Below, one piece after another: positions 2,453-12,470 of a stretch of DNA of 12,558 nt. The translations under genes were made by a program, and so were the position numbers. Origin of the DNA: a virus; UHGV virus genome UHGV-1300782. The stretch is one strand, 5' to 3'. Below the pieces are notes generated by a model. It saw only the letters and a program-made list of their open reading frames with translations. It did no database searches and was not told where the DNA came from. Positions within the stretch are counted from its first letter, which is position 1, and each line of letters begins with the position of its first letter.

Positions 2453-3234
2453 ACAACGTTTTTACCGCGATACAAAACCGTGACGGAGAAGCCCTTTCTC
2501 GCATGTCAGGTTATGAGCATCAGTACGTCAACAATGACAATGTGGTGAACATGTCAGCAGAGAGGCTTGTTGATGCCCTTTTCAAACAGCTGAAACAACT
2601 GTTTCCGGCGGCAGTGGTAACCAACCTGAAGACGCCAGAGCAGGAAGTTGCTGCAAAACAGCAGTGGATTGCTGCGTTTGCCGAAGGGGGAATACGTACC
2701 CGTGAACAGGTTTCTGCTGGTATGCGCCACGCCCGCGCCAGTGAATCTCCGTTCTGGCCGTCGCCAGGGCAATTCATCAAGTGGTGTAAAGACAGCAAGA
2801 TGGTTCTTGGCGTCACCATTGACGATGTGATGGCGGAGTTTCACCGGTACAGCAAGGAAAAAAGTTTATATCCTGGTGGTCCCGAAAGATTCCCGTGGCG
2901 GCATCCGGTTATGTACTGGGTCGTATGTGATACACGCCGTGCAATGTATCAGCGCCAGCTTAGCGAGATTGAGGTTGAGAAACACGCGCGCAGGCTGCTC
3001 GATGATTGGGCGAAAAAGGTGGCTTCCGGACAGCAGATACCCGATCCGGTGATCAGCATACAGGCAAAGCCAGAACCCATGAGTACACCTCCGGACACAG
3101 GGAGAGACGTTTACCATCCACCAGGGCGAAGTTTCGGGTGCATGCCTAACGCCGCCACCCTGGGGGGAATAACACCGGCGCAGTGGCTGATGGAGGAATA
3201 CAGGCGGGGAAAGGCGGCAGGATTTATCAAGTAA
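2449..3234 (+). CDS. Lambda P-like replication protein (helicase loader)
   Basis: GGGAGGA (2436-2442) 6 nt before GTG 2449, overlapping the upstream stop; the 2434 start in the ORF track is the same frame. Stretch QQWIAAFAEGGIRTREQVSAGMRHARASESPFWPSPGQFIKWC closely resembles, as I recall it, the lambda P region containing PSPGQF. Confidence 0.65.
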   Translation: MNNVFTAIQNRDGEALSRMSGYEHQYVNNDNVVNMSAERLVDALFKQLKQLFPAAVVTNLKTPEQEVAAKQQWIAAFAEGGIRTREQVSAGMRHARASESPFWPSPGQFIKWCKDSKMVLGVTIDDVMAEFHRYSKEKSLYPGGPERFPWRHPVMYWVVCDTRRAMYQRQLSEIEVEKHARRLLDDWAKKVASGQQIPDPVISIQAKPEPMSTPPDTGRDVYHPPGRSFGCMPNAATLGGITPAQWLMEEYRRGKAAGFIK

Positions 3235-7012: not shown

Positions 7013-7225
7013 ATGCCAAAAATACGCTACGACCTTGAAGATATGAGAGATAACTCAGCAAATTTTCCGAAAGAGGTTAAATTTCTCATGCATAAGTATG
7101 GTTGCGCCAGGAGGGATATAGTTATCGACAGTCAGCACCCTTGCGGCGAGGATGTAATTTTCATTCGCGGTAAATGGGAAGGGTATCTTGACGAGAGTTT
7201 TTACGATGAATTTGATGGACTTTGA
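7013..7225 (+). CDS. Hypothetical small protein (70 aa)
   Basis: ATG 7013 preceded by GAAGGTG; the ORF track's GTG at 6992 is in frame and cannot be excluded. Stop at 7223-7225 is followed by a terminator. Confidence 0.5.
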   Translation: MPKIRYDLEDMRDNSANFPKEVKFLMHKYGCARRDIVIDSQHPCGEDVIFIRGKWEGYLDESFYDEFDGL

Positions 7226-7230
7226 ATACT

Positions 7231-7257
7231 GCCGCCAACTATGGCGGCTTTATTTTG
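7231..7257 (+). terminator. Intrinsic terminator between accessory block and terminase genes
   Basis: Hairpin GCCGCCA-acta-TGGCGGC (7231-7248) followed by TTTATTTTG (7249-7257). Confidence 0.7.
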
Positions 7258-7260
7258 CAT

Positions 7261-7292
7261 GGTACTATTACCACAACGGTAACTATTACCAC
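7261..7292. repeat. Direct repeat GGTA(A)CTATTACCAC x2 upstream of terS
   Basis: Exact 10-mer CTATTACCAC at 7265-7274 and 7283-7292. Each copy forms an inverted-order palindrome of the operator half-sites (GGTA-CTAT-TACC at 7261-7272; GGTAA-CTA-TTACC at 7278-7290). Confidence 0.65.
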
Positions 7293-7302
7293 GGTGGTTA
7301 TG

Positions 7303-7896
7303 ATGCCTGCTGAACCTAAAACCTATAAACGCAAATCAACGCAATTTAAGCCACTAACAGCAATGCAGGAGGCTTATTGCCAGTCATACATCAAAACGCC
7401 TGAAAACCAGACTCAGGCAGCGATTAACGCAGGATTCTCCCCAAATACAGCGGCAGTTAAAGCCAGTGTCATGATGCGCGATGAACGCATTCAAAAACGG
7501 ATTGCCGAGCTGATGGAAGAGCGCAACAAACGAATGCGCGTCAGTGCTGATTACGTTCTCATGCGCCTGGTGGAGATCGACCAGATGGACGTGATCGACA
7601 TCCTCAACGACGATGGGAGCCTTAAGCCAATCCGCGAGTGGCCGAAAATCTGGCGCACTACGCTTAGCGGCTTTGATCTGTCATCGACCATCATGAACAT
7701 GAACGAGGATTCGATAGAGACAATCCTCAAAAAAATTAAATGGCCTGACAAGGTGAAGAACCTCGAACTGATTGGTAAGCACGTCGACGTCAACGCATTC
7801 AAAGAACGCCTGGATGTTAATGTGAATGTGACAATTGCTGATCGCATAGCAGCAGCCAGGAAGCGACTCAAAGAACGTCAGGATGGTAATCAGTGA
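7303..7896 (+). CDS. terS: Terminase small subunit (Terminase_2-type)
   Basis: Segment LTAMQEAYCQSYIKTPENQTQAAINAGFSPNTAAVKASVMMRDERIQKRIAELM matches the small-terminase pattern (LT..QE.FC.EY ... QAAI.AGYS). Start placed at ATG 7303 (or 7300) after GGTGG; the TTG 7222 extension in the ORF track reads through the terminator and repeats. Stop overlaps the terL start (GTGA). Confidence 0.7.
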   Translation: MPAEPKTYKRKSTQFKPLTAMQEAYCQSYIKTPENQTQAAINAGFSPNTAAVKASVMMRDERIQKRIAELMEERNKRMRVSADYVLMRLVEIDQMDVIDILNDDGSLKPIREWPKIWRTTLSGFDLSSTIMNMNEDSIETILKKIKWPDKVKNLELIGKHVDVNAFKERLDVNVNVTIADRIAAARKRLKERQDGNQ

Positions 7897-9368
7897 CAGA
7901 TACAGCGTTATCTCCTGAAGAGCAGTTGATCGAGGATATTGCAGGGTTCACTCACGATCCGCTTGGCTATGCTCTCTATGCGTTCCCGTGGGGGGAAGAG
8001 GGGACTGAACTGGCACATGCTACCGGCCCACGTCAATGGCAGGCTGATGCGTTCCGAGAGATACGTGATCACCTGCAGAATCCAGAGACGCGCTATCAGC
8101 CGCTTATGCTGGCACGCGCTTCTGGTCACGGTATTGGTAAATCCGCATTTATCTCAATGCTGATCAACTGGGGCATGTCCACTTGCGAGGATTGTAAGGT
8201 CGTGGTGACCGCCAACACCGACAACCAGCTACGAACGAAGACCTGGCCGGAAATTATCAAGTGGTCAAACCTTGCTATCACGAAAGACTGGTTTACCTGT
8301 ACCGCTACCGCGATGTACAGCAATGACCCTGGGCACGACAAGCGGTGGCGAGCTGACGCAATCCCCTGGTCTGAGCACAACACTGAGGCATTCGCCGGAC
8401 TACACAACGAGCGCAAACGCATCATCGTGGTATTCGATGAAGCGTCGAATATTGCCGATCTTGTGTGGGAGGTAGCAGAGGGTGCGCTGACGGACGAAGA
8501 CACCGAAATCATCTGGGTGGCGTTCGGGAACCCGACGCGTAACACCGGGCGTTTCCGTGAATGTTTCCGCAAGTACAAACACCGCTGGAAGTGTGCGCAG
8601 ATTGACAGCCGGACGGTGGAAGGCACTAACAAACAGCAGTTGCAGAAATGGGTTGATGACTACGGGGAAGACAGCGACTTCGTTAAAATCCGTGTGCGCG
8701 GCATATTCCCTGATGCATCTGAATTGCAGTTTATCCCTACCGGTCTTACTGATGAGGCAATGAAACGGGTGGTAACCGCTGCGCAGGTTGCACATGCTCC
8801 GGTGATAATCGGCGTTGACCCGGCATACTCAGGCGTTGATGACGCGGTGATATACCTGCGGCAGGGGCTGCACAGTAAGGTGCTGTGGACTGGCAACAAG
8901 ACTACTGACGATCTGATTATGGCGAAGCGTATCGCTGACTTTGAAGACCAGTACCAGGCTGACGCAGTGTTCATCGACTTCGGTTACGGAACTGGTCTGA
9001 AGTCAATCGGTGACGGCTGGGGTCGTACATGGCAACTTGTTCCGTTCGGTGGCGCGTCTACTGACCCGCAGATGCTCAATAAGCGCGGGGAGATGTTCAA
9101 CTCATGCAAGACATGGCTGAGGCTGGGCGGCATGCTGGATGACCAGGAAACAGCGGACGACCTGTCGGCGGCAGAGTACAAAGTTCGAGTGGACGGTAAA
9201 ATCGTTATCGAACCGAAGGAAGATATCAAGGAGCGGCTTGGGCGCTCGCCGGGTAAAGGCGATGCGCTACTGCTGACGTTTGCTTTCCCTGTGTCGAAGC
9301 GTCTGCGAATTCCCGGGCAGCAGAACCAGCAAGGCAAGGCCATCACAGATTACGATCCCTATGATTAA
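7893..9368 (+). CDS. terL: Terminase large subunit
   Basis: 491 codons; AGGATGG 6 nt before GTG 7893. Walker A-like ARASGHGIGKSAF, Walker B-like IIVVFDEAS, acidic nuclease-type motif VIIGVDPAYSGVDDAV. Size and position after terS fit. Confidence 0.85.
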   Translation: MTDTALSPEEQLIEDIAGFTHDPLGYALYAFPWGEEGTELAHATGPRQWQADAFREIRDHLQNPETRYQPLMLARASGHGIGKSAFISMLINWGMSTCEDCKVVVTANTDNQLRTKTWPEIIKWSNLAITKDWFTCTATAMYSNDPGHDKRWRADAIPWSEHNTEAFAGLHNERKRIIVVFDEASNIADLVWEVAEGALTDEDTEIIWVAFGNPTRNTGRFRECFRKYKHRWKCAQIDSRTVEGTNKQQLQKWVDDYGEDSDFVKIRVRGIFPDASELQFIPTGLTDEAMKRVVTAAQVAHAPVIIGVDPAYSGVDDAVIYLRQGLHSKVLWTGNKTTDDLIMAKRIADFEDQYQADAVFIDFGYGTGLKSIGDGWGRTWQLVPFGGASTDPQMLNKRGEMFNSCKTWLRLGGMLDDQETADDLSAAEYKVRVDGKIVIEPKEDIKERLGRSPGKGDALLLTFAFPVSKRLRIPGQQNQQGKAITDYDPYD

Positions 9369-9418
9369 TCCGCTGGTGGGGATAATGTCGTTGATATCCT
9401 CTGATGAGGATAAAACAA

Positions 9419-9445
9419 AGCCAGCTCATCGGCTGGCTGTTTGTG
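9419..9445. terminator. Bidirectional terminator between convergent terL and the reverse-strand gene
   Basis: Hairpin AGCCAGC-tcatcg-GCTGGCT (9419-9438) with TGTTTGTG downstream on the plus strand and an A-run upstream (T-rich on the minus strand). Confidence 0.5.
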
Positions 9446-9455
9446 ACATGTCACA
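9442..9455. repeat. Palindrome TGTGACATGTCACA, copy 2
   Basis: Perfect 14-bp palindrome; the 13-mer is identical to 6991-7003. Sits between the terL stop and the reverse-strand gene. Confidence 0.7.
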
Positions 9456-9458
9456 GAG

Positions 9459-9866
9459 CTAGAAAATAATTTCATCAAATGCAGCATTTATTGCCTTTGC
9501 TTCGCTAATGGCGCCTTGTTTATCGACAATAGCTTTTTTACCAAGCACCTCGGCAAGGCACTGTAGCTTCATGTTGTATAAGTGTTCGCTCATGTAATCA
9601 TTATCACTTTTTGCTTTAGCGCAAACAGAGCGAGAAATATCAAACACATCGCCTTTTTCCATTTCAGAACGTTGTGCTGTTATCCAGTCATGGAACGTAA
9701 CGCTAGTACCATGGTCTTCTCTAAGAGTTAACCCGGTCAGCCCCTCACTCTGAATTACTTCGTAATGCATTTCATTACCAGCAAAAACGCCATAAAAAAT
9801 GCAGTCTTCAGCCTGAACGATACGAGAATATTTTAATGGCCATTCATTTAGATACTTAGCCAACAT
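9459..9866 (-). CDS. Hypothetical protein (135 aa), reverse-oriented AT-rich insert gene (moron candidate)
   Basis: Minus-strand ORF. Start placed at ATG 9866-9864 (MLAKYLNEWPLKY...) because the longer TTG-initiated version (9929) translates the upstream terminator hairpin. No good SD. My hand count over 9461-9640 gives about 37-42% GC against about 48% in a terL sample (8401-8460). No predicted membrane segment by eye; no family recognised. Confidence 0.5.
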   Translation of the reverse strand: MLAKYLNEWPLKYSRIVQAEDCIFYGVFAGNEMHYEVIQSEGLTGLTLREDHGTSVTFHDWITAQRSEMEKGDVFDISRSVCAKAKSDNDYMSEHLYNMKLQCLAEVLGKKAIVDKQGAISEAKAINAAFDEIIF

Positions 9867-9891
9867 ATCAATTGTCTTGATAATCTCACCT

Positions 9892-9916
9892 AAAAAAAAT
9901 GCCCGGCGAACCGGGC
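9892..9916 (-). terminator. Strong intrinsic terminator immediately upstream of the reverse-strand gene
   Basis: Minus strand reads GCCCGG-TTCG-CCGGGC-A-TTTTTTTT (plus 9916 down to 9892): 6-bp GC stem, UUCG tetraloop, U8 tract. Ends about 25 nt before the ATG at 9866. Confidence 0.75.
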
Positions 9917-9993
9917 GAACTGGAAGCAATGAGTTATGCCTTCCGTGGCTGTACTGGTTTACAGCATGAAGTCATCGCAATGGCGTCCTGCTG

Positions 9994-10036
9994 TAAAAAG
10001 GGCGGTGATAGTCCTTCAAGGGAAACCATCACCGCC
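9994..10036 (-). terminator. Candidate terminator of the tRNA
   Basis: On the minus strand a 9-bp stem GGCGGTGAT / ATCACCGCC (plus 10036-10028 and 10009-10001) around an 18-nt loop, followed by C-TTTTT-A; about 44 nt after the tRNA 3' end. Confidence 0.45.
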
Positions 10037-10080
10037 AAGCCCCCTGGAACTTCTGGCATCACGGTCCTTAGGCGTGATTC

Positions 10081-10157
10081 TGGCGTGGCATGCAGGATTC
10101 GAACCTGCGACCAACCGCTTAGAAGGCGGTTGCTCTGTCCAGCTGAGCTAATGCCAC
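10081..10157 (-). tRNA. tRNA-Arg (anticodon UCU)
   Basis: The reverse complement folds by hand into a 77-nt cloverleaf: acceptor GTGGCAT/ATGCCAC, D-stem GCTC/GAGC, anticodon stem ACCGC/GCGGT with loop CTTCTAA (anticodon TCT), variable loop TGGTC, T-arm GCAGG-TTCGAAT-CCTGC, discriminator G, encoded CCA. Confidence 0.85.
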
Positions 10158-10479
10158 AACGCTGAGAGCACTTAGCCTGTTAAGGCGCCACACTTTGTCG
10201 CGGCTCCATAAATGCTCTCATCGTTGTACCCTCGTCTCTTCCGAGGTGTCACACCGAATCGCCTGGATGGTGAATCCCCGTGCGCGGAATAAAACCGCTC
10301 GACTTGCACATTCCGGCTACCTGGTTCGTTTGCCCGAGCAAGGGAGGGTGCCCCTTAAACGTATCCAGACCGCTATCGGCGCATGTGCCATACGCCGTAC
10401 TGCTCAAAATAAAAGCTCACTCCACCTGTTCAATTTAACGACAAGCCAGTCAGGTTAGTAACCGGAATGAACTCTTTGG

Positions 10480-10523
10480 TTACCTGAAAGGTAATAATTC
10501 GTGCGTTAAATGTCAACTGTCTA
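10480..10523 (-). promoter_or_regulatory. Third promoter-operator cassette, leftward, feeding the tRNA/insert unit
   Basis: Minus strand reads TAGACA-G-TTGACA ... AATTAT-TACC-TTTCA-GGTAAC. Operator TTACC-N5-GGTAA at plus 10480-10494 abuts a -10-like AATTAT (plus 10494-10499) exactly as at PL. -35 candidates are TAGACA (plus 10518-10523, 18-nt spacer) or TTGACA (plus 10511-10516, spacer too short). A lone GGTAA half-site sits at 10552-10556, where a second operator 62 bp away would lie. Confidence 0.45.
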
Positions 10524-10584
10524 CGATAAATAAATCATATGTGGTTAAATTGGTAATAATTTAATTGCGTACGGAGTCATTGAT

Positions 10585-10791
10585 ATGTGCATGGGTAGCT
10601 CACCATCAGTGCCTGCAACACCAGAAGTTCAGGCAGCACCACAGGAGCAGGATGCCGCCGTTGTTGATGCCCGCGACGAAGAAACTCGTCGCCGTCGCGC
10701 TGCTGCTGGTCGTAGTTCTACGCTGCTTACCGGTTCTCAGGGCGACACATCAACCGCTAATACCAGCGGTAAAACGCTGCTTGGTCAGTAA
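10585..10791 (+). CDS. Hypothetical small protein (68 aa), low-complexity and Arg-rich, upstream of portal
   Basis: GGAG (10573-10576) 8 nt before ATG 10585. Codon choice (CGT/CGC, GGT, CTG, ACC) looks like expressed enterobacterial genes. The overlapping TTG-initiated frame at 10565 has no SD and was not called. Confidence 0.55.
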   Translation: MCMGSSPSVPATPEVQAAPQEQDAAVVDARDEETRRRRAAAGRSSTLLTGSQGDTSTANTSGKTLLGQ

Positions 10792-10805
10792 CCGGAGTCA
10801 TTGAA

Positions 10806-12470
10806 ATGGCGGAAACAACTAAAGAGCGATTGAACAAACAGTTCGCACAACTTGAAAGCGAGCGTCAGTCGTTCGAGCCGCACTGGCGCGAGTTGAGTGA
10901 TTACATCAACCCGCGTGGTTCCCGCTTTCTGACTTCTGAGGTCAACCGTAACGATCGACGCAATACACGCATTATTGATTCGACCGGGACTATGGCGGCG
11001 CGCACTCTCGCCAGCGGCATGATGTCAGGCATCACAAGCCCCGCGCGTCCGTGGTTTCGCCTGGCTACGCCAGATCCTGAAATGATGGATTATGGCCCTG
11101 TTAAGTTGTGGCTTGAGGCGGTGCAGAACCGCATGAACGATATGTTCAATAAGTCGAATCTCTATCAGTCGCTGCCGCAGTTATACGGAAGCCTCGGCAC
11201 ATACAGCACTGGTGCAATGGCAGTGCTGGAGGATGACGAGGACATCATTCGCACAATGCCATTCCCGATAGGAAGTTACTACCTGGCTAACTCACCTCGT
11301 GGCAGTGTGGACACCTGTTTTCGCAAGTTCTCTATGACTGTTCGTCAGCTTGTTCAGGAGTTCGGGCTAAATAACGTCAGCGAATCCGTAAAAAGCATGT
11401 GGGAAAGCGGCACCTACGAGAAGTGGATTGAAGTGATGCATTCGGTTTACCCGAACATTGACCGCGATACATCGAAGCTGGATAGCAAGAACAAGCCATT
11501 CAAATCGGTTTATTACGAGGTTGGTGGCGATAACGACAAGTTGTTGCGTGAGTCCGGATTCGATGAGTTTCCAATTATGGCTCCGCGCTGGGAAGTTAAC
11601 GGCGAAGATGTTTATGGATCATCATGCCCGGGTATGCTGGCGCTTGGACCTGTTAAGGCATTGCAGCTTCTCCAGAAGCGCAAGTCGCAGTTGATTGATA
11701 AAGCCACCAATCCGCCGATGGTTGCTCCGACTTCCCTCAAGAATCAGCGCGCCTCCCTTCTTCCTGGCGACATCACGTATATCGATCAGATTACTGGTCA
11801 TGATGGTTTCAGGCCTGCTTATCTGGTTAACCCCAGTACAGCAGATTTGGTGGCAGACATTCAGGACACTCGTCAAATCATTAACAGCGCCTACTTTGTC
11901 GATCTGTTCATGATGTTGCAGAACATCAATACCCGCTCGATGCCTGTTGAAGCGGTGATCGAAATGAAAGAAGAAAAACTTCTGATGTTGGGGCCGGTTC
12001 TGGAGCGTCTGAACGACGAATGTCTTAATCCTCTCATTGACCGCGCTTTCTCGATGATGGTGCGTAAAAACATGCTGCCGCCACCGCCTGACGCGATGGA
12101 AGGTATGCCCCTGAAGGTCGAATACATTTCCGTCATGGCTCAGGCGCAGAAGTCTATCGGCCTGTCCAGTCTGGCGTCTACGGTCAACTTCATTGGTCAA
12201 CTTGCGCAAGCGAAACCAGAAGCTCTCGACAAACTCAACGTTGATCAGGCGATCGATGCATTCGCTGATATGTCCGGAGTGTCTCCAACCGTCATTGTTC
12301 CGCAGGAACAGGTTGAGCAGGCTCGCCAGCAACGGGCACAGCAACAACAGCAGCAACAAATGATGGAGATGGGGATGGCGGCGGCACAGGGTGCCAAGAC
12401 GCTAAGCGAAGCTAAAACTTCGGATCCGAGTGTTTTGTCAGCTATGGCGAATGCAGTTAGTGGTCGCTGA
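10806..12470 (+). CDS. Portal (head-to-tail connector) protein, T7-type family
   Basis: 554 codons; GGAG 9 nt before ATG 10806. N-terminal pattern (ERQSFEPHWRELSDYINP ... ARPWFRLATP) and the Gln/Met-rich C-terminus (QQQQQQQMMEMGMAAAQGA) parallel the T7 gp8 connector as I recall it. Confidence 0.8.
   Translation: MAETTKERLNKQFAQLESERQSFEPHWRELSDYINPRGSRFLTSEVNRNDRRNTRIIDSTGTMAARTLASGMMSGITSPARPWFRLATPDPEMMDYGPVKLWLEAVQNRMNDMFNKSNLYQSLPQLYGSLGTYSTGAMAVLEDDEDIIRTMPFPIGSYYLANSPRGSVDTCFRKFSMTVRQLVQEFGLNNVSESVKSMWESGTYEKWIEVMHSVYPNIDRDTSKLDSKNKPFKSVYYEVGGDNDKLLRESGFDEFPIMAPRWEVNGEDVYGSSCPGMLALGPVKALQLLQKRKSQLIDKATNPPMVAPTSLKNQRASLLPGDITYIDQITGHDGFRPAYLVNPSTADLVADIQDTRQIINSAYFVDLFMMLQNINTRSMPVEAVIEMKEEKLLMLGPVLERLNDECLNPLIDRAFSMMVRKNMLPPPPDAMEGMPLKVEYISVMAQAQKSIGLSSLASTVNFIGQLAQAKPEALDKLNVDQAIDAFADMSGVSPTVIVPQEQVEQARQQRAQQQQQQQMMEMGMAAAQGAKTLSEAKTSDPSVLSAMANAVSGR
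12262..12356 (+). repeat. Direct repeat, copy 1 (inside portal coding sequence)
   Basis: 95 bp, 94/95 identical to 12464-12558 (offset 202 bp); the single mismatch is C at 12301 versus T at 12503. Confidence 0.85.

Follow-up and report, generated by a model that had tools for sequence, protein, structure and literature searches.

A variable cargo slot between the terminase and portal genes of a Uetakevirus-like phage and its phrog_4846 gene, a candidate counter-defence factor

Between the terminase large subunit gene (terL) and the portal gene of the window, the 12,558-nucleotide stretch of virus genome UHGV-1300782 analysed here, lies a small AT-rich gene that runs antisense to both. It is a genuine gene of the family phrog_4846, and it occupies a slot with fixed borders, which in related temperate phages is filled by one of at least ten unrelated small genes or by several in tandem, or is left empty. 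Because of this location, and because members of the family stand in operons with genes similar to that of the anti-defence protein Acb4, we tentatively read the phrog_4846 protein as a counter-defence factor, a proposal to which we would give slightly less than an even chance. Variable, immune-related cargo in a hotspot of temperate phages is a known kind of thing; in the literature that we searched, no paper mentions phrog_4846, and neither the slot between terL and portal nor the RNA platform on which its cargo appears to depend was found.

The open reading frame (ORF) is a real gene, since it has 81 homologues, a pattern of substitutions typical of a constrained protein and a confidently predicted structure. 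A program-made list places it at 9459-9929 on the - strand with an ATG at 9866, which yields the 135-aa product noted in a preliminary description of the window that was made without database searches. The family frame is longer at its N-terminus: as judged from the phrog_4846 match, the homologues and the substitution pattern, it covers 9459-9881 (- strand) with 140 codons and the stop TAG at 9461-9459, while the 5' extension of the ORF up to 9929 enters a hairpin and is non-coding. The preliminary description recognised no family, but the product gives a full-length hidden Markov model match to phrog_4846 of the PHROGs database (function unknown; E 5.1e-84), in which residues 1-135 correspond to positions 6-140 of the 140-position profile; the 140-aa relative P0001 (WP_021546138) matches the same profile over 1-140. 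The homologues, which share 37-99% identity, come from Escherichia, Salmonella, Citrobacter, Enterobacter and Klebsiella, and none of them bears a functional name. Coding conservation among relatives, on which the preliminary description had made its case depend, is evident from pairwise ratios of nonsynonymous to synonymous substitution rates (dN/dS) of 0.18-0.45 over seven alleles, with dS reaching 0.93. The deviant base composition that had been noted is even more pronounced than estimated: the GC content is 39.7% (35.5% at third codon positions) for the ORF versus 54.6% for terL and 51.6% for portal (about 60% at third positions in both).

On the structural level, an AlphaFold2 model of P0001, computed from 37 sequences, has a mean predicted local distance difference test score of 84.5 and divides the protein into a predicted alpha/beta domain at the N-terminus (1-75), a linker predicted to be disordered (76-92) and a predicted helical hairpin at the C-terminus (93-137). 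These parts behave as modules. The alleles are mosaics of N- and C-halves, the helical hairpin recurs behind other N-domains (P0096, P0099 and Tyrion gp53), and the N-domain recurs with other C-terminal modules (P0047, P0088 and P0109). The family is small: among 1.84 billion cluster representatives, a profile search found 32 relatives at E<=1e-3, all of which belong to the same family or represent its separate modules; the long repeat proteins P0105 and P0108, which were also among the profile matches, look like spurious low-complexity matches and were set aside. The protein (15.9 kDa, pI 5.0, net charge about -7) is acidic, has a grand average of hydropathy (GRAVY) of -0.22 and is predicted to be cytoplasmic. 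Searches of Pfam, NCBIfam, PADLOC and PHROGs assigned it no function beyond its membership in phrog_4846, with no Pfam match at E<=1; at E<=10, Pfam gave only scattered single-member noise for 37 family members, and a sequence profile search of the PDB returned no match at E<=10.

The slot becomes apparent when the window is aligned with the phages PAS61, phiV10 and TL-2011b. The flanks are near-identical, on the left the end of terL, a terminator hairpin and a palindrome, and on the right a Shine-Dalgarno (SD) sequence, a U-run and a hairpin, onward to a tRNA gene; the body of the ORF is replaced by unrelated reverse-strand genes. In an E. coli prophage (strain 2013C_3964), the site is empty and retains the SD, an ATG and seven codons. 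The gene thus is what the preliminary description took it for, an accessory insert in the late region, and the comparison of related prophages proposed there reveals both cassette exchange and an empty site. All phrog_4846 contexts that we examined, in E. coli, Enterobacter and Klebsiella and for a 201-aa variant, including three contexts of distant homologues, sit in this same slot. Empty slots (L004 at about 3090-3130, L036, L101 and L136) retain the SD together with an 8-codon mini-ORF, MKYEFDGF-stop, and a near-identical mini-ORF, MKDEFDGF-stop, overlaps the stop of the Acb4-like gene in the Enterobacter prophage L012 (6806-6832); this mini-ORF may be a remnant or a conserved element of the junction.

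To gauge the content of the slot, we compared 5,426 complete E. coli genomes with a 581-bp query that comprised the ORF and both borders, and counted a genome as a carrier of the cargo if the match extended over at least 80% of the query. At least part of the query is matched by 502 genomes, 113 of which carry phrog_4846 cargo; many of the remaining ones carry a gene that the annotation pipeline PGAP names 'Gp49 family protein'. This name also applies to phiV10 gp03 (phiV10p03), which belongs to PF13876 (E 6e-35), and a phmmer search with a protein of this type gave a weak direct match to the Acb4 structure 9E4W. PF13876 is the family of Acb4, a cyclic-nucleotide sponge of phage SPO1 directed against the cyclic-oligonucleotide-based antiphage signaling system, CBASS (10.1101/2024.12.30.630793; 10.1101/2025.07.12.664507). 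Likewise, the cargo of Klebsiella phage ST512-KPC3phi13.3 encodes a Tad2-like domain (PF11195, E 4e-26). The Tad2-like protein of the slot (L020 967-1488, 173 aa) has an extra N-terminal domain of about 76 aa without a Pfam match, in keeping with reports that sponge domains tend to form fusions; a relationship of these 76 residues to the phrog_4846 N-domain was considered and dropped, as no resemblance was found.

A second survey was blind to the cargo: 120 IMG/VR loci were fetched via GGTGTGACRCCTCGGAAGAGACGAGG, an invariant motif of the RNA encoded upstream of the slot that occurs in more than 120 IMG/VR contigs, and the 58 loci with enough sequence were classified. Acb4-like genes are the commonest cargo (23 loci), followed by a family of the BUCT711/ECONIH1 type (12). 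Full-length phrog_4846 genes account for 4 loci, and another 4 encode only the phrog_4846 C-terminal hairpin behind another N-domain. The remainder is divided among Tad2-like cargo (3), a TL-2011b gp23-like gene (1), an SPN1S 64-aa-like gene (1), 8 other cargoes of unknown kind, 7 of which have a readable ORF and represent four sequence types, and 2 empty slots.

The association with characterised anti-defence families is thus twofold: Acb4-like and Tad2-like genes are alternates of phrog_4846 in the slot, and Acb4-family genes also lie directly downstream of it. In Enterobacter and Klebsiella prophages (L012-L015), the PF13876 gene is located 8-12 nt 3' of phrog_4846, and its SD overlaps the phrog_4846 stop codon. 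It has been reported that anti-CBASS genes tend to neighbour small uncharacterised genes in anti-defence islands (10.1101/2024.12.30.630793). If phrog_4846 is such a gene, its protein would bind and neutralise a host immune component or signal, and the modelled C-terminal helical hairpin may serve as an oligomerisation or adaptor module. Expression from a prophage does not argue against a sponge-type function. Several points nevertheless weigh against a role in counter-defence. The support is guilt by association; such guilt by location is statistical, and most cargo families of the slot are of unknown function. According to a preprint, only about half of the phage hotspots annotated as anti-defence are functionally pure (10.1101/2024.10.15.618418). 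Furthermore, the two terminator-like hairpins upstream of the gene, described below, are odd for a sponge that is needed early and in abundance, and a promoter of constitutive host type that runs against the late genes would also suit a moron, i.e. an accessory phage gene, for lysogenic conversion or defence.

How the cargo is expressed is a question of its own. No sigma-70-like promoter was found, either by scan or by sequence inspection, between the hairpin at 9916-9892 and the start of the gene, in agreement with the earlier remark that there is no room for one. Upstream of the tRNA unit, the strand of the ORF has its sole conserved promoter-like element: a putative sigma-70-like promoter at 10488-10516 (- strand) with TTGACA (10516-10511), a 17-nt spacer and TACCTT (10493-10488), preceded by AT-rich sequence. 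Its TTGAC and TTACCyT motifs are conserved in the E. coli, Klebsiella and Enterobacter relatives, and the scan flagged an overlapping, weaker reading of the same element. It is followed, in this order, by a 320-nt leader, the tRNA, a first terminator hairpin, a conserved stem and a second hairpin. Between the first terminator and the second hairpin, a search by eye and by scan for an internal promoter gave no candidate that is conserved among the relatives. Transcription of the promoter-less cargo would then start at the conserved promoter, some 620 nt away on its 5' side, and the cargo would form the last part of an RNA unit composed of the structured leader, tRNA-Arg and two hairpin-U-run elements; only transcripts that pass these would reach it. 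Co-transcription with partial read-through, or with processing, of the hairpin elements would be the simplest model, and the dependence on read-through from the tRNA unit that the preliminary description postulated remains the most economical route.

The first of the two hairpins (9994-10036, - strand) is located 3' of the tRNA and consists of a 14-bp stem (10036-10001) followed by CTTTTTAC; it was found by the terminator scan, is with a dG of -22.8 kcal/mol the stronger of the two, and had not been noted in the preliminary description. An alignment shows that the stem is preserved via compensatory changes in Klebsiella and Enterobacter relatives. The second (9892-9916, - strand) was recovered by the scan just as it had been described and has a predicted dG of -12.7 kcal/mol; it has the form GCCCGG-UUCG-CCGGGC (GCCCGGTTCGCCGGGC, 9916-9901), followed by an A and by U8 at 9899-9892. 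It is found in every related locus irrespective of the cargo and represents the right-hand docking border of the slot. On the other side, the cargo unit is closed by a terminator-like hairpin (9409-9438, - strand; dG -15.9 kcal/mol including the palindrome hairpin) with its stem at 9438-9419 and the tail TTGTTTTATC. It faces the end of terL, whose stop is at 9368, in convergent orientation, and the phiV10 annotation lists a putative rho-independent terminator there. The claim of a bidirectional terminator at 9419-9445 can be upheld for the - strand only, as on the + strand the hairpin is followed by GTTTGTGA, which fails the T-run criterion of the scan. Both border hairpins, 9916-9892 and 9438-9419, are conserved in about 85 related loci and are therefore not a product of chance. 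Between the cargo stop and the left terminator lies a perfect 12-bp palindrome, GTGACATGTCAC (9443-9454), which forms the left border of the slot and is kept irrespective of the cargo, in the window, in PAS61, in phiV10, at the empty site and in the Enterobacter and Klebsiella loci. It might serve to bind a protein or mark a border of recombination.

The leader itself (10158-10480, - strand), of about 320 nt, is a conserved structured non-coding RNA. In an RNAalifold analysis of 36 non-redundant relatives, it is predicted to form 46 base pairs in seven helices, 15 of them with compensatory changes, and its closing stem ends 1-2 nt before the 5' end of the tRNA. As many as 94.8% of the cells in the alignment are paired, compared with 30-42% in slid controls, and none of 500 shuffled alignments reaches its covariation score. 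It has no match in Rfam 15 at E<=1 and is a candidate for a new class of phage RNA. We can offer only as a hypothesis that the leader helps transcription or processing to get past the two hairpins.

The tRNA that follows (10081-10157, - strand) is a tRNA-Arg with anticodon UCU and an encoded CCA, as identified by ARAGORN and by the Rfam tRNA model (71.7 bits); the corresponding tRNA of related prophages carries a tRNA-Arg annotation. Codon supply as a reason for its linkage to the ORF, terL and portal was ruled out by counts of arginine codons: AGA occurs once in the phrog_4846 ORF, where it was created by a change private to the window, and not at all in terL or portal. The window also has a private G at D-loop position 10142, where the compared relatives have A, and a private extra C at 10040, 3' of the tRNA and ahead of the first terminator hairpin. 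In L012 (5114-5960), L013 and L022, long RNA inserts of up to about 400 nt replace the tRNA-Arg; their closing stem, GUUGUGGUG...CACCACAAC, is acceptor-like and has CCA after it. L014 (5770-5900) has a tRNA-like sequence with a long insertion and receives no ARAGORN call.

This setting invites another interpretation, in which the gene has an accessory role outside immunity, in lysogenic conversion or in phage housekeeping, for instance as a modulator of host physiology, of the packaging or portal assembly of the phage, or of the adjacent RNA and tRNA unit. It lies between packaging genes, it is presumably co-transcribed with the tRNA and the structured RNA, and several cargo families of the slot have no known function. 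Yet, since near-identical phages have an empty slot or one with unrelated cargo, the phrog_4846 gene must be dispensable for assembly; furthermore, it persists in L012, where the tRNA is absent, and the sole identifiable cargoes belong to counter-defence families. We consider a role of this kind quite improbable.

The junction hairpin-A-U7-AAGGTGA-N3-4-ATG is identical for phrog_4846, for Acb4-like genes and for several other cargoes, and in Klebsiella phage ST512-KPC3phi13.3 the Tad2-like gene is preceded by the hairpin and the U-run, though by a different SD (AGAGAGGAAATC-ATG). Since the same junction serves different cargoes, it is, as far as the compared sequences tell, a resident docking site that belongs to the slot and not to the phrog_4846 gene, and the cargo arrives without a promoter. 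The BUCT711/ECONIH1 class, by contrast, bypasses the resident SD: these phrog_4780-like, coiled-coil-rich proteins of 201-263 aa (e.g. L018 2832-3437, L023 650-1441, L024 and L069) are preceded by a promoter-like element of their own, aTGACc-17-TATAAT, located after the hairpin.

The shared junction also bears on the idea, put forward in the preliminary description, that a gene held behind terminators is likely to be harmful. This conclusion does not hold, as the gating says nothing about toxicity: genes for Acb4-like and Tad2-like proteins lie behind the same junction, and those relatives of these proteins that have been characterised act as nucleotide sponges in the cytoplasm and are not toxins. 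With it falls one argument for regarding the product as a prophage defence, superinfection-exclusion, abortive-infection or toxin-like protein that is kept at a very low level by the terminators and acts in the lysogen against other phages. Such a protein would be at home in a gene that is antisense to the late operon, lies behind a host-type promoter expected to be active in the lysogen and is AT-rich and foreign in composition, and prophage hotspots of P2 and P4 do carry defence systems (PMC9122126). Our searches, however, point elsewhere. PADLOC-DB 2.0 gave no defence family at E<=1 for the window protein and none at E<=0.1 for P0001; no enzymatic, membrane or nucleic-acid-binding domain was detected in the window protein; its hydropathy is low; and no partner gene accompanies it in the E. 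coli slot. Thus, of the undescribed accessory or defence function that had been proposed, the accessory part stands, while the defence or toxin part finds no signal in PADLOC, Pfam or NCBIfam, and the identifiable neighbours and alternates, being counter-defence genes, point in the opposite direction. Overall, we regard a defence or toxin function as unlikely. As for the wider picture, in which phrog_4846 would found a new counter-defence family with a fold unseen in solved structures, its slot would be a promoter-less docking platform, and the leader would be a new RNA class that perhaps carries expression through the terminators, we find it possible but, with all its parts taken jointly, rather doubtful.

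A separate matter is the state of the copy in the window. Almost all homologues begin with MKTxDM (140 aa), the canonical forms of the N-terminus being MKTxDM and MKTVE. The family start codon (9879-9881, - strand) is ATG in all relatives and ATC in the window; it lies five codons 5' of the ATG chosen in the preliminary description. The latter, at 9866, corresponds to Met6, is located about 20 nt from the SD and has no ribosome-binding site of its own. Measured to the family start at 9881-9879, the distance from the U-tract is about 10 nt, not the roughly 25 nt given earlier. The SD, AGGTGAG at 9885-9891 (- strand), is common to different cargo genes and reads AAGGTGAG in the relatives. Accordingly, the junction of the relatives is hairpin-A-T7-AAGGTGAGATy-ATG-AAr-ACA, while that of the window is T8-AGGTGAGATT-ATC-AAG-ACA, which amounts to two private changes in the initiation region: ATG to ATC, and an extra T in the U-run (9892) that turns AAGGTGAG into TAGGTGAG. 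The nearest E. coli prophage differs from the window at exactly these two bases over 91 nt.

Since the family ATG is mutated and the internal Met lacks a ribosome-binding site, the sequence suggests that the window copy is probably poorly translated or silent, i.e. a weak or null allele. Whether it is a decaying, non-expressed remnant, effectively a pseudogene or crippled allele of a family that is functional elsewhere, seems to us an even call. The start codon lost here is otherwise invariant and the next ATG has no SD; no exact match to the ATC allele was found in the 5,426 complete E. coli genomes, the GTDB species representatives (one genome each) or IMG/VR; and K2 and T3 show more than 90% conservation and belong to helix 1 of the AlphaFold2 model. 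Relative to the nearest allele, there are two private amino-acid changes and two synonymous ones, one of them at codon 2, right beside the lost start. Conversely, the frame is intact through all 140 codons, ATC can support low-level initiation in E. coli, and a lone recent mutation does not demonstrate long-term decay. The loss of the start codon and the change in SD and U-tract could also reflect selection against the expression of a costly protein, a point in favour of a defence or toxin function. Window-private substitutions amount to about 1% across the whole of 9200-10500, however, and two in the initiation region are only mildly unusual; therefore, we do not claim selection there.

The region matches the epsilon15/phiV10-like temperate podoviruses (genus Uetakevirus), and the window is an E. 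coli phage of this type. Escherichia phage HEMP4 matches the window at 9300-10900 with 98.6% identity, and the flanks of the region are matched by vB_EcoP_PAS61, phiV10 and TL-2011b. Following the annotation in related phage records, the + strand encodes the terminase small subunit (7222-7896), the terminase large subunit (7893-9368), a 68-aa protein (10585-10791) and the portal or head-to-tail connector protein (10806-12470). Two further + strand ORFs, 9899-10165 (88 aa) and 9936-10151 (71 aa), annotated as phiV10 p04 and TL-2011b gp24, are probably annotation artefacts and were treated as spurious: they overlap the tRNA in antisense, they have no PGAP call, and neither L012 nor L014 has the tRNA in question.

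Homology searches are poorly suited to the discovery of phage counter-defence proteins, most of which have been found by chance or via their neighbours. Against this background, the slot, matched at least in part by 502 of the 5,426 complete E. coli genomes, offers a compact place to hunt, clearly delimited by its fixed borders. Two cargo families, Acb4 and Tad2-like, belong to experimentally characterised immune-evasion families, and at least eight others, phrog_4846 among them, are of unknown function. If phrog_4846 does neutralise a defence system, it would represent a new family and a new fold for counter-defence in temperate enterobacterial phages, with a bearing on host range in phage therapy and on prophage biology. 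Independently of this, the arrangement raises the question of how promoter-less cargo is expressed through terminators, behind a structured RNA and a tRNA, two hairpin-U runs and a shared ribosome-binding site.

Among the known systems, Acb4 (PF13876, Phage_gp49_66; PDB 9E4W), as represented by phiV10 gp03 and in many E. coli prophages, comes closest. It shares with phrog_4846 the slot, the hairpin-U7-SD-ATG junction and the left terminator, and gp03 is of similar size (123 vs 140 aa) and likewise encoded on the reverse strand; in Enterobacter and Klebsiella prophages, the two genes are direct neighbours. The proteins themselves show no detectable sequence similarity, with 17% identity in a forced alignment, and PF13876 matches neither the window protein (E<=1) nor the 37 family members (E<=10), although it detects gp03 as a control (E 6e-35). 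The second comparison is with Tad2 (Thoeris anti-defence 2; PF11195/DUF2829), whose relatives are alternate cargo in Klebsiella and other Uetakevirus-like genomes. Modular fusions are frequent among sponge families (10.1101/2025.07.12.664507). The phrog_4846 family has a modular build too, with the N-domain, the helical hairpin and a further C-terminal module found in varied combinations. Again, no relationship was detected: PF11195 has no match in the window protein or the 37 family members, and a profile-profile comparison (hhalign) of phrog_4846 with the Tad2-like protein of the slot gave a probability of 0.5%, i.e. no match.

In its genomic behaviour, phrog_4846 resembles the morons described by Hendrix and co-workers. 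Related phages either have or lack it between the same pair of conserved genes; it has a deviant base composition and its own terminator (9438-9419), and would be transcribed independently of the late operon, here in antisense. A classical moron brings its own promoter; the cargo class of phrog_4846 does not, but makes use of a hairpin and an SD that are already resident in the slot. The neaT 'moron' paper (PMC3573123) was considered as a precedent and set aside, since it concerns a different locus and a different gene. The hotspots of P2 and P4 (Rousset et al. 2022, PMC9122126) likewise combine conserved flanking genes with highly variable small cargo and lend themselves to guilt by location; they are enriched in defence systems, whereas the identifiable cargo of the Uetakevirus slot is counter-defence and the slot is embedded in an RNA gene unit.

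For this embedding, a cellular counterpart exists. In the thrU-tyrU-glyT-thrT-tufB operon of E. coli, a protein gene without a promoter of its own lies downstream of tRNA genes, and a protein gene 3' of a tRNA and without its own promoter is also found in the Uetakevirus slot; here, however, two terminator-like hairpins separate tRNA and gene, and the tRNA itself follows a structured leader of 320 nt. Finally, an adjacent antitoxin or sensor gene, as in a toxin-antitoxin or abortive-infection module, was looked for and not found in the E. coli slot, which holds a single gene between hairpin and terminator. Where the slot does hold a second gene beside phrog_4846, this gene is an Acb4 homologue.

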